DNA of 42,004 nucleotides from Chthoniobacteraceae bacterium (GCA_037190965.1 JBBCKI010000043.1:1-42004); one strand, 5' to 3'. Numbered from the stretch's first letter, positions 15,001 through 21,000 are shown. Made by a program: the numbers.

Positions 15001-18000
15001 ATAAGTACAGATTTATTCTATCATAGATAAAACTTATTCCTTCTGGGGAAATTCCAGTGACGGAGGCGGTATCGAGCGGACGGGGTCAACGGACGTCCGA
15101 GCGGACGGGGTCAACTCTTGACGCTTGACAGCGAGCGGACGGGGTCAAGCGGACGGGGTCAACTCTTGACACTTGACAGCGAGCGGACGGGGTCAACTCT
15201 TGACACTTGGCGGACGGGGTCAACTCTTGACACTTGACAGGGTTTTATCAAATTCACCCTTAAGTAAGTCAATATGTTGAGTCCATTGAGGCTGATTTTT
15301 GAGTTGTCTCTCAAGGCGTTTGAGTATCTGGGTGATCGCACTTCCGTCCTTATATCCCATGGATCGGCCTACGTCGATACGTCTTTCGCCTCCCAAGGAG
15401 ACACGGATCCATACTTTCCAGCAGATCTCCTTTTGCCCTTGCGCGACTTTGTTTGCCGCTGTCTTTCTGCTGCTTTGATCATCGGAGCGTGCCACCCACG
15501 CCAACTCCTCATCTCCTGCCTTCAGTTGCAATATATCTCGAACGCGTTCCTGTATTTCGCTACTACCGAGGACAAGCCCCGCCTTCAAATTCTCCCACGG
15601 ATTCTCAATCGACTCTTCGAAGGCGTCGTCCATAAAACGTCTATATTCCTTCTGTGCCCGGTTTCGCTTGCTCCCGAAAAAGCTTAACCAGTCAAGGCTC
15701 AGCCAGTTTGGGCAGACGTCGAGGCCAAGGTAAGATCGGTGGCTGCTCCAACGGTAATCCTGAAGCAGCTCCCGATACTCAATTGGCACCCTTGCGTTCT
15801 TGTCTCTCGGCCTGACGGGATTCAAGTGCATGTACCGCAATAGCTCCATTGCGTACCGATCGGCTTCAACCAAATGCGCTTTAAAGCGCCCCTGAAAGAG
15901 ATGCCCGCTACGTCGATGACGACGATTAAACCGAACGGTGTAAGTCGTTTGGAACCACCCAATCGCCCGGCTGAGGTTGCCTCGCGGCGTCTCCAGCAAA
16001 ACGTGGTAATGGTTTGGCATCAGACAGAAACCATGGACTCGCAAACCGTGTTGCCCGATACATTGCTCTAGCGTGGCCAGAAAGAGCTTTCGATCTTCAT
16101 CATCCCGGTAGATTCGCTGCCTTTCATTCCCCCTTGCGGTTAGATGATAAACAGCCCCTTCAAACTCAACTCGGATTGGCCGTGCCATGCCATCCTTTTG
16201 GCCAAATCTTCAGGGTTGTCAAGTGTCAAGAGTTGACCCCGTCAGTTGCGTCAGTCAAGTGTCAAGAGTTGACCCCGTCAGGCGTCAGTCAAGTGTCAAG
16301 AGTTGACCCCGTCAGGTTGACCCCGTCAGGCCCCGTCAGGAAGAGTTGACCCCGTCAGCCCCGTCAGGTGTCAAGAGTTGACCCCGTCAGCCCCGTCAGC
16401 GCCTGCAGCCCCGTCAGCGCCTGAACCCCGCCTGATGCTGGCCGCGCTTATTTCACTTCATTCCATACGGCTCACTGAACCAAGTCTTGAATTTAATTAA
16501 AAATTTATCAACTTTTTCATTGTATTCGATACTCAATCCTGATTGAGACGGGATGTGCGCAGCCTCAGAAAGGAGATCAACGTCAACTCCAGGAATGGCG
16601 ACCCGTTTCGCCCCGATCTTATTCGAAGTATAATCAAAATCGACTAGAAGAACTTCACTAATTGAATCAACTGTGTCACCAAGGCCAATTAGTATACCAG
16701 CTGTTGTTGATTTATTTGAAAATACTGGAGGAGCCAGCAAAAATGTCTTTTTAGATGAGGGTGCGTTGAGCGACTCTGGGGTTAGCGTAAAACTCGCTGA
16801 AGATTCCTTTTGACTGAAATCATATTTTCCCGCGTTTATTGCCTCTTGTCGCGCCTTCCAAGTCAAAGGCGGCGAGCTCAATCCCTCTTGTATCTTATTT
16901 AGATTCAAAAAGGTTATTTGATGATTGTAATCGGTCATTTTTACCCTGCGACCGATTTTAGGAATGTAGCATATTATGCTGCCGCTCGGCTTCGAATACA
17001 AAGCCGTTACATAGTCAAGGAAAATAGTTCTCACTCGTCGCGCGTCAACGATCGCGCATAGTCCCTCAAATATATTCCGGCTAGGTTCTCCGCTTTGTTT
17101 TTGAAAAATTATAACCAATTCAGAATTTAGCCATTTAAGCTCAATATCTGGACTCCATTCCCAATCAATATTTAGTGAATGATGACCTGCGCTCCCTTGG
17201 GTTTCAAATTCAATAACCCGCTTTGAGGTGTTGGCCTGAGCAGAAACCTCAATTGTCCCATCTGGGTTTTTTGAAGTGAAGCCAAACACGCATACGCTTA
17301 AAAAGCAATTCACGATCAGGTGGTATAGATATAATCTCATATTTTATTGCAGTTTAATAACCCATTTCGTTTTTTTGCCCCACGTATTTGCCTGTTGGTT
17401 AAGAGTGGTTCCCCCCTCTCCAATGTAGACATCAATCTGAGTTGATCCCAGTCCACCGCCAATATCAATTTTTTTCTTCTTTCCGACGTCTTGAATGATC
17501 ACTTCATCGCCGCAGCCTAGCTTTGGAGATATGGCAGCATACCCATCTGTATTGCCAATAAGATTGTGGGGAGAGCACGAGGCGGTTTGTTGACTTGGAT
17601 TAGGATTAGCAAGATAAGTTGGAGCTCCACCATTTAACAATGTCCACGGAGTTGCTGTAGTATTGCCATATGTAGAATGGAAGCGTACAACTGTTGTGCC
17701 AATTAGGCCCAAGCCTTCATTTGCAGGATCAACAGCGTTCATAAAGGCGATTGGATGAGCAACATTTGTCACCCCCGACCAAACAGTGCCATTTAATGCT
17801 CCTGTACCCTTACTCAAAACCGAGCCGGAATATCCGCTCTCCTGTGGGGTGAAATAATTCGATATAGTCCACTTGCCAAGATAGACGAAGTTCTTGTTTA
17901 AGTTTTTTGTATGCTTAGCTTGTTTGTTTGATGGAGACCAAACGGCGTTTATCTTTTTGAACGTCTTATCTTTGACTGCGTCAGTTAGCTTGTCTTCAAT

Positions 18001-21000
18001 ATGAAATGATTCAGTCTTTTCAGTATCGGATCCGGTGACGGAAGCATTATAAATCTCAACCTTCTGGTCGCCGTCCAATTCCAATTTCAACGTGCCAGAC
18101 AAACCCGAAGGCGTGCATTTAAAAGTAATTTTATCATCTTCGACATTTGTATCAATGATCTCTACTTTTGGGACAATGACTCGATAAGGGAACGTTGCGC
18201 CAGTTGTGCAGGTTACAACGGGTCCGCCGTTTTTGCCAGGCGTTGTATGGCTAACGGTAAGTGTGCATTGAGCATCGGTCGGTTCAGAGTTAAAAGGAAC
18301 GACTACTGAGCTCTTCCCGGAATACTTTTGATCTCCGGGAACATCTAATTCAAGAGTGACTACATCTCCTGATGGCACACCAGATGCGGTGAATGTCACA
18401 TTCTCCTCTTTCAGCACAACAATAATCCCGTTCCCATCTTTCGCTGGAGTTGTGCTAATAGTGTGAGCTTGGAGGGTGATTGCTGGGATTGCCAGGGCTA
18501 ATATGTAGATTAACGATTTCATTTCTTGAGTTCCGTTCTTGGCCTCGCTACGTTATGTAGTTGGGGGTAGGCGTTTTTCATTGCCAATTCAAACCTTTCT
18601 TCATCATCGCGGCGAGTTCTAATGGCGATCTCCAGAAGCTCTTTTTCTTCTGGAAACTCTTTTAGCAATCCAATAAATTGGTCAGATTTTCGATATCCCG
18701 ACAGGGATAAGTCCCTATCGATGGAATGAAAGCGAATATTGAAGATTTGTCTTCGGTTCTTTATCTGCGGGAGGAGATTGAGTGCCTTCTCATGGTCGCC
18801 CAGCTTGAAGATATAGAAAAGTCCCAGCGCTTGACACGCGTCTCCTTTGCTTCCCTCATCTTTGGCCTTGGTGACGGCATCTAACAATTTCTCTTCTTCG
18901 ACCGCCAGTGCTGCTAGGATATCCTTGCCCATTGGGCGTGTAATGGTTTTCCCTGTGAATTGTCCGTCCTTTGAGAAACTATAGACGGTGGAAAAACCTT
19001 TTTCATCAACTTCTCGGATTAACCTTCCCGCTTCATCGTAGGAAGCCTTATAGATTGTTTTCTCGACGCCGTCTTTCTCCTGATCAACTTTCTGAACTTT
19101 TTCATACAATGGCCCTGGTTCAGGAAATGTGTAGACGACCGTTTTTACACCGTTTGTATCTGTCCTGCTATGGATTCCCAGCACCTTGTCTACGTAGACA
19201 CTCTCCCTCTTTCCTGCGGAATCAATCCGCGAAATGGCGGGAAGCGCGAATTTATCGGCAATAGCTCCTACTTCATATTTCCAACCATCTTGAGTGCGAA
19301 TATGGCCGGTGGTGGCGTCCCAAGTGTAAGTTGTATTGGCTCTTTCTCTGTCCGTAAACACAAGCTTAGGAGCATGTTCCTCCGTCAATGAAAAATCGAA
19401 GTTTTCCACCGTCTTATCGGCAAAAGTCAGACCGACGAGGCATTCATCAAAGCCCTCCACGATAGTCTGTTTCTGAACTACGCTAACATGAGGTCGTTTG
19501 CCCAAAGTTGCGACATGACTGCGGAGATTCGAAAAGAATGTAACTTTGTCACCTTTGACTTCGACCTTTAAAATAGGTTTTGTTCCTTCATAGATCGCTG
19601 AGGGCTGGGTGCCATTGAAGATCCATTTCAACTTTCGTCCGTTATCCGTCGTCAAGGATACAAGTCTTCCACTGAAAAATTCCAATGCCCAACCATCGTC
19701 CCTGGTTATTGTGAAAGCCTGCTCCGTTAGTGTTCCGGTCCACTGGTGATCCAAAGTGCGGAACTTGTTTCGTTCCTTCGGGATCTGGCGCAAGTAAAGT
19801 GCCTTGCCACACGGGAGATTGGCTTTGATCATGTCGGGGCGAATGCGTAGTGCGTGCGCCTCAATCAATGGGCACCAGAACCCTTCACCGAAGATGCCTC
19901 TGACGCCTTTTTCGCTCGAGAACTTTATACGCAAAGGCAATCTCATTCCTTCGCCCAAGTCAATCTGGTCTACTTCCCTCCATATTTCCAAGTTTCCCTG
20001 ATAATTGGCGGCACCTATTCCATTTGCAGGCGCTGATAGATCAACAGGACGGGAATATGCACCGCCTCCTCCAAGCAGCAACGCTCCGCAAAATAGAATG
20101 GCGGAGAGCCGTTGAATTGACTTCATTGTATTTACTCGAAGAAGTCAGTATTAGGCGGCGGCGTGCCTGTGTCACATGCTGCTTTAACGGATTGAGTCGA
20201 AGCGACCATTCCTAGGATCCCGGCTAGCAAAATCATCCAAATTTTTCTCATTTTCACTTCCATTGACATCTCTTCCGTAGAGTTTCAAACCGTTTTCATA
20301 GTGTCAAACATTATTTTTCACTCATGTTTTTCCCGAAAGATTAATGTTGCCCAGGATGGGCAATAGTCAGTCGTGCCTGGGAGTTCGGTTAGGGAAGTAG
20401 TGACCTTCCGCCACGCGAAGATTGCAGGAGATTGCGAGAACTCCCCAAAAAACACATGGACCTTCTCGGGCTCTGGAACCCCCAGTTCCCCTGGCGAGAA
20501 TGCGGGATTGATCAAATGCAGACGACCCCCGTTTTGAATTCGCTTTTTAAGATACCCCAATTCTCTTCCCGTGCCTCCGGCAACAACGATCATTGCTTCC
20601 TGGTGGGGGAGGTTGCTTGCGGAGCTTACAAATCCGATTGGCTCCGCATCAATGATGTGTTCATTCAGTGATCTGCGGATATCCTTCCCGTAATCTCTTC
20701 CCATAACATCATGATCGGGGAGAACCCAGATCTTTGGAGATCTAGCACCGATTGTCAGACGTCCGTTGGCAAAATGGATGTGGTCGGCAAGCGTGGGACT
20801 TGGGCGGTCGAGGATCCCTACGAAAAGGATACCCGCTAAAACTGTCCCGGAGATAGCCGCAATTCCAGCACTGGTTCTCCATCCTGGCCAAGTCTGGTTT
20901 CGAATGTGCGATACGATTGCCAGAAGCAGGAGAAGGCCCGGCATTCCCCATAGCCATGTCGATTCCGCCACGGAGCTGAAAGCGGCAGCGACGCTAAACG

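Follow-up and report, generated by a model that had tools for sequence, protein, structure and literature searches.

A cassette in the genome of a Chthoniobacteraceae bacterium encodes a short Rhs shell, a separate cargo protein and a variable third protein, each with its own predicted signal peptide. We propose, at about even confidence, that it specifies a toxin–immunity system of the Rhs type whose parts are encoded separately and exported by Sec, with the short shell docking the cargo; binding, toxicity and export route are all putative. The cassette lies in a window of 42,004 nucleotides (the whole stretch of DNA analysed), corresponding to the contig called C43.

Layout of the cassette and its surroundings

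The genes form an operon-like run on the minus strand, from 23678 to 16453, in the order α/β-hydrolase, O-antigen-ligase-like gene, tiny signal-peptide ORF, short shell, cargo and third gene. Spacing is tight throughout: the ligase-like gene starts 1 nt after the hydrolase gene, the tiny ORF ends 5 nt ahead of the shell start codon (ATG), the shell and cargo ORFs overlap by 4 nt, and 3 nt separate the cargo from the third gene. A preliminary description of this DNA as a low-GC cassette of co-directional shell, cargo and third gene was borne out, as GC content is 0.41–0.47 in these three ORFs vs 0.61 in the flanks. The same description counted three genes and called the third one small. We found at least four genes, as a signal-peptide ORF of 39–45 aa had been overlooked, and third genes of 192–295 aa in this genome.

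Table. Features of the cassette and its surroundings, in window positions.
Feature	Position	Strand	Basis or remarks
671-aa protein with two alpha/beta-hydrolase-like domains	21663..23678	−	GxSxG motif in each domain; accessory to the system
O-antigen-ligase-like (Wzy_C) membrane protein, 447 aa	20318..21661	−	PF04932, E 6e-15
Tiny signal-peptide gene, 45 aa (39 aa if it starts at the ATG of 20251)	20132..20269	−	ORF filter
Short Rhs shell, 535 aa	18519..20126	−	AF2 model, Foldseek, VIA
Cargo, 392 aa	17344..18522	−	Homologue domains, alignment
Third gene, 295 aa, signal peptide; putative periplasmic immunity protein	16453..17340	−	No family match
REP-associated tyrosine transposase (RAYT-like)	15220..16188	−	NF047646, 77 bits vs cut-off 80
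Low-GC 252-aa signal-peptide helical-repeat orphan	14195..14953	−	GC 0.41; ERAP1_C, E 0.008

That the shell carries no fused toxin tip also proved correct: its frame stops at 18519–18521, a separate signal-peptide ORF follows, and contigs span the junction. Public contigs of run X1, possibly the source of the window itself, tile the cassette with no differing letters listed, and one of them (record 7) spans the shell–cargo junction. Signal peptides were called by an in-house heuristic that also passes 466 of the 2014 ORFs of the genome.

As previously stated, the genome, which belongs to a soil bacterium, holds four full copies and one part. The four shells lie on C43, C30 (57% identical), C53 (30%) and C58 (28%), and the partial cassette is on C35. 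The tiny ORF encodes a signal peptide and a 15-aa acidic peptide with Cys and Pro. Its homologues are partial at the C30 contig end, intact on C58 (12228–12398) and broken on C53, and the filter used to call such ORFs was passed in 24/42 short-shell loci vs 22/1860 genome ORFs.

REP-like arrays at about 15067–15256 and 16200–16423 surround the RAYT-like gene, which is the island border and stands outside the cassette proper. The helical-repeat orphan sits between this gene and a RAYT 5' remnant (about 13900–14160). Neither the other 72 loci nor the rest of the genome holds a homologue of it, and it is possibly an orphan immunity gene.

Shell, cargo and partner genes

The shell comprises a signal peptide (aa 1–24), a cork/DUF6531-like start followed by a YD beta-meander (aa 25–396), and a TPR-like helical tail (aa 401–519) that is modelled by AF2 as an ordered helical cap. 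The AF2 model has a pLDDT of 94.8, and its top Foldseek matches are Rhs cores (E 8e-12). Profile matches to Rhs PDB chains reach E 9e-27, and TIGR01643 is matched above cut-off. Structural alignment with VIA gave a Z of 17.4 against residues 360–742 of 8qjb (rmsd 7.9, 316 aligned) and of 17.3 against 8uxt (rmsd 3.4, 285 aligned), while the tail aligned with TPR proteins at Z 8–9. The shell had been called half-size, which is too generous: the YD part, of about 370 aa and 30 strands, has about 40% of the 76 strands of RhsA and about a third of the residues of an Rhs core. A complete cocoon has about 1000 aa and 76 strands; here, about 30 strands are followed by helices. Furthermore, a profile scan found no RHS-associated core with its aspartyl autoprotease (TIGR03696) on the window shell or cargo, and the only two TIGR03696 matches in the genome are on contigs C7 and C4. 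With a third of a cocoon and no core plug, the shell should be unable to enclose the 373-aa, three-domain cargo in the Rhs manner.

Eight further homologues had been listed in the preliminary description. The family is far bigger, with 713 clusters at 50% identity (E<=0.001), and the shell is present in 37/301 genomes of the order. Among the top 150 cluster representatives, 118 are 380–700 aa long. A variable gene was also said to follow short shells. We found a signal-peptide-like gene directly after 39/45 short shells, mostly overlapping or abutting, which supports that claim in part; not every short shell has a cargo after it, as some of these 39 genes encode an immunity-like protein, a hydrolase or a long Rhs. 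In a quick tree, the window shell falls in a clade with SH-aLRT 100 (W43, C30, L102, L105, L106 and L112), all six members of which are followed by the same PKD/Ig-type cargo start.

Judged by alignment, the cargoes are common Ig/PKD N-termini joined to exchanged tips. The window cargo consists of a signal peptide (aa 1–19), a PKD/Ig domain (about 20–119), a second Ig domain (about 120–213) and a tip (about 214–392). Its similarity to the C30 cargo is restricted to aa 3–129, and P0159 joins the N-terminus of the L055 cargo to the window's own tip. The window cargo is predicted to be a cell-wall-acting effector, as a 3D-domain-like tip would probably be a peptidoglycan-cleaving enzyme, with weak profile support. 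Its homologues match PKD (P0160, E 7e-6) and, weakly, 3D (E 0.03), the L105 cargo matches 3D at E 7e-8, and P0161 is named '3D domain' by JGI. An Atlas 3D cluster scored 0.89 for the tip, a lead only, and D353 and D364 of the tip are invariant in 6/6 aligned sequences. The window cargo itself has no Pfam 3D (PF06725) match, and hhalign gave the tip a probability of 4% against the L105 3D region. The cargo model has a mean pLDDT of 54 with an unfolded tip (pLDDT <50), its fold search matched only generic two-Ig proteins, and its profile found nothing meaningful among PDB sequences (best E 0.22). Pfam has no family for the tips of the C43, C30, C35, C53, C58 and L016 cargoes. Atlas searches with the window tip and third gene returned only unnamed clusters or scores under 0.9, and a tip-alone search of the 301 genomes matched in this genome only. 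Elsewhere, tips are papain-like or HExxH, as called from motifs or DUF922 matches only.

Third genes vary with the tip in the manner of immunity genes, and their immunity function is putative. They resemble one another only when their tips do (C30 and C35, E 9e-68; C53 and C58, E 4e-30; L057 and L059, E 3e-7). The window third gene has no match in family profile and Atlas searches. Its best match among 37 is the gene that follows the same tip at the shell-less locus L128 (BLASTP E 6e-4; z 3.5, reached by 3/200 shuffles), which is weak support. The traits of polymorphic toxins are thus recognizable from comparison: a conserved N-terminal trafficking part, an exchangeable C-terminal domain and a neighbour gene that covaries with the tip.

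The ligase-like gene is, from its distribution, a dedicated partner of the shell family, with glycan transfer as its putative activity. It occurs in 34/301 genomes of the order, of which 28/34 are shell-positive vs 9/267 ligase-negative genomes, and has homologues in 21/73 fetched loci. The protein scores 55.8 bits against PF04932 (Wzy_C; curated cut-off 31.7), and at least 85% of 18 homologues retain R130, G147/G149/G151, H177 and E183. Arg and His are thus retained, but the spacing of the His differs from that in the WaaL/PglL motif. Homologues of the hydrolase occur in 29/73 fetched loci and are encoded as two genes in most relatives; its family matches are weak (Hydrolase_4, E 0.007; PHA depolymerase, E 9e-5, below cut-off). 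The exosortase A system likewise places an O-glycosylation ligase and two hydrolases beside exported proteins, as do the ligase-like gene and the alpha/beta-hydrolase pair here. In an NCBIfam scan, the window ligase-like protein and hydrolase matched none of the exosortase A system ligase or hydrolase models.

Genes for a TPR protein, an ABC transporter and a small membrane protein recur as a trio around many shells (in 16, 16 and 14 of the 73 loci, respectively). We do not regard the trio as a marker specific to the system, since TPR homologues occur in 177/301 genomes (including the unpublished G177) and the copies in this genome are unlinked (C45, C18). Other genomes do have a cassette-linked subfamily (E <1e-110).

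Some relatives divide Rhs proteins at another point. Their long shells end inside the Rhs core, after an 'LTAFG'-type segment, and separate signal-peptide genes, in arrays, hold TIGR03696 positions 12/13–76 and the tip. Such core-tip genes occur in 14/301 genomes and are missing from this one. Fused forms continue through the same split point, and one shell family includes fused, core-split and short-shell forms. The break lies within one structural domain, so the parts need to reassemble. As each core-split tip is encoded together with a signal peptide, loading in trans would be possible. One split tip weakly matches Tlde1 (E 3e-4, below cut-off). As the long split shells belong to a clade other than that of the window shell in the quick tree, they represent a parallel case and not an ancestor.

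A candidate mechanism and its alternatives

In the preferred reading, the tiny peptide, shell, cargo and third protein would each reach the periplasm separately via a signal peptide, as called by the heuristic. The cargo would be modular, with a common PKD/Ig handle and an exchangeable tip, as comparison of cargoes indicates, and the third protein would be its cognate periplasmic immunity protein. The shell would form an open cup (cork and first turn) capped by TPR-like helices and not a closed cocoon. It may bind the N-terminal Ig handle of the cargo as a carrier or display scaffold that replaces the covalent link of Rhs proteins, and the tiny peptide may be the counterpart of the N-terminal segment that is cleaved from ordinary Rhs proteins but stays attached to them. 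More speculatively, the complex could exit via a type II secretin or vesicles, and the ligase-like enzyme and hydrolases could glycosylate or anchor one part, most plausibly the tiny peptide, which is rich in Ser, Thr and Pro. Five secretin matches were found in the genome, and none to VipB. Counting against the preferred reading are the window's tip family at loci that lack a shell, the absence of a long Rhs fused to this tip among 854 candidates (a weak test), the weak 3D assignment and the many Cys-rich cargoes. Of the earlier idea that carrier and cargo are split, the polymorphic layout and separate export are supported, the former by common cargo N-termini, differing tips and third genes that track them, the latter by the natively split Rhs of relatives with its signal-peptide tip genes.

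A broader version, which we hold only tentatively, is that a Verrucomicrobiota Rhs lineage repeatedly swapped self-cleavage for gene splitting. Leader, shell and toxin would assemble in the periplasm, the ligase-like enzyme would glyco-anchor or tag the complex, and the short shell would be an open, reloadable docking cup. Separate export and periplasmic assembly would then allow one carrier to load different toxins in trans without recombination.

We consider it unlikely that the cassette is instead no toxin system but a scaffold by which variable, frequently disulfide-rich and non-toxic proteins are exported, folded or displayed at the surface, with the third gene as a chaperone or partner. 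Many cargoes are 74–170-aa Cys-rich or galaxin-like proteins; about 24 loci have Cys-rich cargoes with no enzyme motif, and the small Cys-rich cargoes of many relatives may be non-toxins. By hand count, MauE is near 11/24 Cys-rich-cargo loci vs 0/14 Ig-cargo loci, and DUF1573, C39 peptidase and rhodanese genes also occur near the former. The third genes of L069 and L088 are alike, one with a weak LolA-like match, and family profile scans matched none of the cargoes of this genome to a named toxin family. The window, however, is of the Ig-cargo type, in which tips are enzyme-like, and MauE, DUF1573 and rhodanese are all absent over 14 kb. Against this explanation, third genes change along with the tip and are in places duplicated or orphaned (L105, L017), as in immunity arrays, and the cargo downstream of short shell L055b shares homology with an L080 domain past the Rhs autoprotease motif (phmmer E 4e-11 among 15 tips).

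Rather improbable, in our view, is a MafA/MafB/MafI-like arrangement, in which cargo and third gene are a toxin–immunity pair and the shell is an independent adhesin or receptor-binding surface protein that does not bind cargo. The window tip family was also found at two loci without a shell in fetched DNA (2/2 loci found). Some shells are cargo-less, rhodanese-fused or located before a complete long Rhs (L019, L066, L067, L070, L074, L075), and the N-termini of cargoes after related shells differ widely. Independence of shell and cargo is nevertheless hard to reconcile with junctions that overlap or abut in most loci, with the PKD/Ig-type start kept throughout the window-shell clade, and with the split in relatives that requires reassembly.

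Finally, decayed or mis-assembled ordinary Rhs genes, with the layout as a truncation accident, are very improbable and already largely refuted: low GC, the adjoining RAYT gene and REP arrays and several broken copies (the C53 tiny gene, L020, L078, L093, L094) are outweighed by the recurrent shell length, the ordered helical cap, the signal peptide on each part and the junction lying intact within a public contig.

Comparison with known toxin systems

In the prevailing view, an Rhs protein is a single chain that encloses its own tip, and tip cassettes further downstream are silent recombination donors. The split forms would allow tests, on small soluble proteins, of how Sec-exported Rhs proteins assemble and deliver cargo when no type VI system is involved, and of possible activity in 'orphan' tips. 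The tight ligase-like link hints at a further modification or anchoring step, and these loci are a source of many uncharacterised effector–immunity candidates in a little-studied phylum. We found no description of this split system in the literature searched.

Among the Rhs toxins compared (RhsA, 7q97; Tse15, 8uxt; Rhs-Tre23, 7pq5), RhsA matches the shell over residues 299–706, which hold its cork and first YD turn (VIA Z 15.6, rmsd 8.0, 303 aligned). Passages of PMC8765631 describe RhsA as cleaving itself into an N-terminal piece, a cocoon of 76 strands and a toxin. These three pieces would correspond to separate genes here, the tiny peptide being the putative N-terminal piece. Rhs toxins and the cassette have in common a variable tip and a downstream immunity-like gene. 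Unlike Rhs toxins, the cassette has no PAAR/VgrG link, its tip is on a separate signal-peptide Ig protein, and its shell has a TPR-like tail.

The cocoon of Tc toxins is made of two polypeptides, TcB and TcC, according to the same passages (PMC8765631). The shell aligns with TcB (Z 11.1, rmsd 3.5, 336 aligned), and its first 200 aa with the SpvB N-terminal domain (Z 9.9, rmsd 3.1, 173 aligned). No TcA partner or beta-propeller was seen, though no genome search was aimed at TcA; in contrast to Tc toxins, the cassette parts carry signal peptides. As the cargo lacks YD repeats, it cannot complete a cocoon as TcC does.

Passages of Zhang et al. 2012 (PMC3482391) describe T2SS/Sec-dependent toxins with a signal peptide, RHS repeats, Ig domains and standalone tip cassettes, and tips that include transglutaminase/papain and HExxH types. 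There, the standalone tip cassettes serve as recombination donors, and these passages mention no signal-peptide tip genes, tip-less shell or ligase-like partner.

The Neisseria MafA-MafB-MafI loci, several per genome, comprise an accessory gene, a signal-peptide toxin with a conserved N-terminus and a variable C-terminus, and an immunity gene (PMC5349182). They resemble the cassette in gene order and in the number of loci per genome. No DUF1020 or MafA family match was found among the scanned cassette proteins. The cassette differs from them in that its accessory protein is an Rhs fragment, its immunity-like protein is predicted to be exported, and it has additional peptide, ligase-like and hydrolase genes.

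Cassette layout and genomic setting

Contig C43 of the genome under study (4.2 Mb, 59% GC; probably of the phylum Verrucomicrobiota, judging by Atlas taxa and related records), which constitutes the window, carries three minus-strand ORFs for a shell, a separate cargo and a third gene that are lower in GC than their flanks, as the preliminary description had reported. The further copies that it had placed on C30, C53 and C58, with a part on C35, were also recovered: three shell paralogues (C30, 57% over 532 aa; C53, 30%; C58, 28%) are each followed by a cargo and then a third gene, and C35 starts inside a C30-like cargo. 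Its three-gene layout holds for these ORFs but is incomplete, as an extra ORF lies directly upstream of the shell. Public contigs of run X1, from which the window may derive, tile the whole cassette with no other letters listed, and one of them crosses the shell-cargo junction. Therefore, an assembly error is an unlikely cause of the separation of shell and cargo.

Features of the cassette and of its borders
Feature	Position	Strand	Description
RAYT region	13900-16423		RAYT-like transposase, multi-copy REP-like arrays in inverted orientation, second RAYT 5' remnant
Orphan	14195-14953		Low-GC, signal peptide; between the two RAYT elements
Third gene	16453-17340	-	295 aa, GC 0.41 (flanks 0.61)
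Cargo	17344-18522	-	392 aa, GC 0.44 (flanks 0.61)
Shell	18519-20126	-	535 aa, GC 0.47 (flanks 0.61)
Tiny gene	20132-20269	-	45-aa ORF, or 39 aa from second ATG; directly upstream of shell
Ligase-like gene	20318-21661	-	Wzy_C family (E 6e-15); upstream of tiny gene
Hydrolase gene	21663-23678	-	Double alpha/beta-hydrolase; upstream of tiny gene
3D-domain protein	23928-24413	+	Separate, high-GC (Pfam above cut-off); other border of island

The tiny gene ends 5 nt before the shell start, and its product consists of a signal peptide and a 15-aa acidic peptide containing Cys and Pro. A filter for such ORFs, designed after examples were seen, was passed in 24 of 42 short-shell loci and in 2 of 9 long-shell ones that had 600 nt or more of upstream sequence, with several loci drawn from a common genome. 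Among the ORFs of the genome, 22 of 1860 passed, including two from these cassettes. Homologues are intact on C58, broken on C53 and represented on C30 by an end at the contig edge.

The shell and its short and long relatives

The AlphaFold2 model of the shell (111-row alignment, pLDDT 94.8) contains 30 strands over mature residues 21-372 and helices at 377-495. Foldseek ranked Rhs cores at the top (E 8e-12, TM by query 0.14-0.34). VIA-align superposed residues 14-372 on the opening 370-400 residues of Rhs cores, aligning 316 residues to 8qjb at Z 17.4 and rmsd 7.9, and 285 to 8uxt at Z 17.3 and rmsd 3.4. It also placed residues 17-214 on SpvB-N (Z 9.9) and the tail, a helical arrangement of a common kind, on TPR proteins (Z 8-9). 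RhsA is described in PMC8765631 as a cocoon of 76 strands with a cork spanning 305-386 and, closing the other end, an autoprotease at the C-terminus. Given the 30-strand model and this mapping, set against the 76 strands of RhsA, the modelled shell consists of the cork and approximately one turn, close to a third of the cocoon by residues and not the half proposed earlier. The claim that it has no fused tip was upheld, and a profile scan found no RHS-associated core (TIGR03696) on it. In the C53 and C58 shells, additional YD-like sequence replaces the helical tail at the C-terminal end.

Of 1.84 billion cluster representatives searched, 713 matched the shell at E<=0.001 (435 at 1e-10); among the best 150 of these, 118 are 380-700 aa long, 21 are shorter, 4 fall between 700 and 1000 aa and 7 reach at least 1000 aa. 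With short and long forms pooled, the shell profile had matches in 37 of the 301 genomes searched from the order and in 22 of 401 from the phylum. The family, first described from 10 of 120 order genomes and eight further database homologues, is much larger than those eight suggested.

Several loci depart from this form. A rhodanese domain is fused to the C-terminus of the short shell at L066:9808-11322 and L074:7861-9297 (Pfam E 1e-17 to 1e-18), and a complete signal-peptide Rhs of >1650 aa comes immediately after the tiny peptide gene and the short shell at L066:12102-19206, L067:1938-8983 and L070:1-6550. At L005:1288-2352 (G040), the first 230 aa of the shell lead almost immediately into the latter half of the core and a tip, reflecting an internal deletion or mis-assembly. 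Other Rhs-type loci also occur in the genome itself. At C5:1-11961, the contig ends inside the gene for a YD protein, of which at least 3988 aa are encoded. C7:28001-34837 and C4:67670-71504 each hold an interrupted Rhs gene that has a core domain and neighbours resembling immunity genes, and the C7 locus contains two RAYT-like genes.

Longer shells of 1100-1190 aa (L079-L082, L025) stop shortly past the first part of the core; others are broken or interrupted (L078, L092-L094) or cut by the contig end (L083). Separate tip genes begin with a signal peptide and a short linker. Next come TIGR03696 positions 12/13-76, in which neither aspartate varies, and finally a tip that differs between genes; a variable gene follows each tip gene, and one array holds five such units. 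Array loci include L080:293-12894 (G187) and likewise L078, L079, L081-L083 and L092-L094. The tip-gene profile had matches in 14 of 301 genomes, and 12 of these also have a shell; the same profile search found no such gene in the genome of the window. Fused relatives (L120-L124) are continuous through the split point, and L126 is split elsewhere. L025 combines a long tip-less shell with an HExxH cargo that has no core, and the L055b cargo shows homology to one of the tips located after the core in L080 (E 4e-11, 15 tips compared). We regard these arrays beside full-length tip-less shells as natively split Rhs, which merit a separate study.

In a quick tree, unrooted and built from the N-terminal regions of 64 shells, the window shell grouped with C30, L102, L105, L106 and L112 (SH-aLRT 100), a clade placed weakly beside other fused Rhs (values of 92 and 80), and the long split shells grouped with fused Rhs of other classes (99). 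Judging from these different groups, gene splitting probably arose more than once.

Cargoes, third genes and linked genes

In 39 of 45 short-shell loci, a signal-peptide-like gene has its start between -60 and +200 nt of the shell stop; one more locus was left out because its sequence ends too soon. These 39 genes include immunity-like genes (L017, L022, L085, L119), a hydrolase (L074) and complete long Rhs (L067, L070). At L017:8156-11255 and L022:5434-8504, repeated immunity-like genes follow the short shell with no obvious cargo. A signal-peptide heuristic was passed by 36/36 cargoes, 33/37 third genes and 20/30 shells in a hand-picked set, against 466/2014 genome ORFs and 14/1840 internal windows.

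The cargo is modular. Window and C30 cargoes have only the first domain in common, and the PKD/Ig first domain of the window cargo recurs in L055, L102, L105, L106 and L112. The protein P0159 joins an L055-type N-terminus to the window's tip. Tips include a 3D-like type (weak in the window; Pfam E 7e-8 in L105), one that is papain-like by a Cys-His-Asp motif alone (C30, C35, L016) and HExxH/DUF922 (L058, E 3e-9; L055b, E 5e-4). Third genes are alike only where tips are alike (C30 and C35, C53 and C58, L057 and L059), except for the L105 tandem pair and L069 with L088, which shows by sequence comparison that the third gene co-varies with the tip. For the window third gene, the best of 37 was the gene after the same tip in L128, a weak match (E 6e-4, z 3.5).

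The ligase-like gene is linked to the shell: its product occurs in 34 of 301 order genomes, 28 of which are among the 37 shell-positive ones, and only 9 of 267 ligase-negative genomes carry a shell (Fisher's p 6e-26, overstated as related genomes are not independent). In two further ligase-positive genomes, G082 and G260, the contigs with the ligase-like gene also hold split tip genes. Across 73 fetched loci, we counted homologues of the hydrolase in 29, ligase in 21, TPR in 16, ABC in 16, rhodanese in 15, MauE in 13 and DUF1573 in 10. The TPR gene was rejected as a system-specific partner, being order-wide (177/301 genomes, including the unpublished G177). It belongs to an uncharacterised, equally widespread membrane protein/TPR/ABC module (C45:10907-13227, small membrane protein and 620-aa TPR protein; C18:65495-67477, ABC ATPase-permease fusion), a diverged copy of which lies inside many shell loci.

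Proposed function and known systems

The cassette itself is real; its toxin function is putative. It would work like a polymorphic toxin locus built from Rhs parts, and we give roughly an even chance to a split carrier-toxin-immunity system. The Ig handle of the cargo would dock on the open shell, the tiny peptide would be a separately encoded N-terminal piece, and toxin and immunity protein would act in the periplasm. Speculatively, export might use a type II secretin, of which the 97%-complete genome has five matches and none to VipB, and glycans might be attached.

A second cargo class is small and Cys-rich; by hand count, MauE lies near 11 of 24 such loci and near none of the 14 Ig-cargo loci. 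At L062-L065, L068, L071, L073, L085-L090, L114 and L118, the short shell is followed by Cys-rich signal-peptide proteins of 74-170 aa and, in most cases, by proteins of 270-390 aa that belong to no family; genes for DUF1573, C39 peptidase, MauE and rhodanese lie close by. Such cargoes may not be toxins, and a non-toxic display or folding system is an appreciable, if minor, possibility. Slightly less probable is a toxin-immunity pair of which the shell is independent. No shell was found near the window's tip family in the fetched DNA of both genome-collection loci carrying that tip, which counts against an obligatory carrier role of the shell. There, the Ig and 3D-like tip ends a 1082-aa Ig/TSP3/NIDO protein (L128:3568-7757) or lies behind a TPR protein (L127:3572-6891). 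Decay of Rhs genes is very improbable.

The cassette lacks three defining Rhs features and is therefore not classed as an Rhs toxin. Tip-less Sec-exported shells, signal-peptide tip genes and a ligase-like partner were undescribed in the full-text literature searched, which covers subscription journals little, and supplements of PMC3482391 could list such architectures. For the proposed split system, TcB/TcC offers a parallel in its cocoon of two chains, SpvB-N in the start of the short shell, and MafABI in its accessory gene, signal-peptide toxin and immunity gene (PMC5349182).
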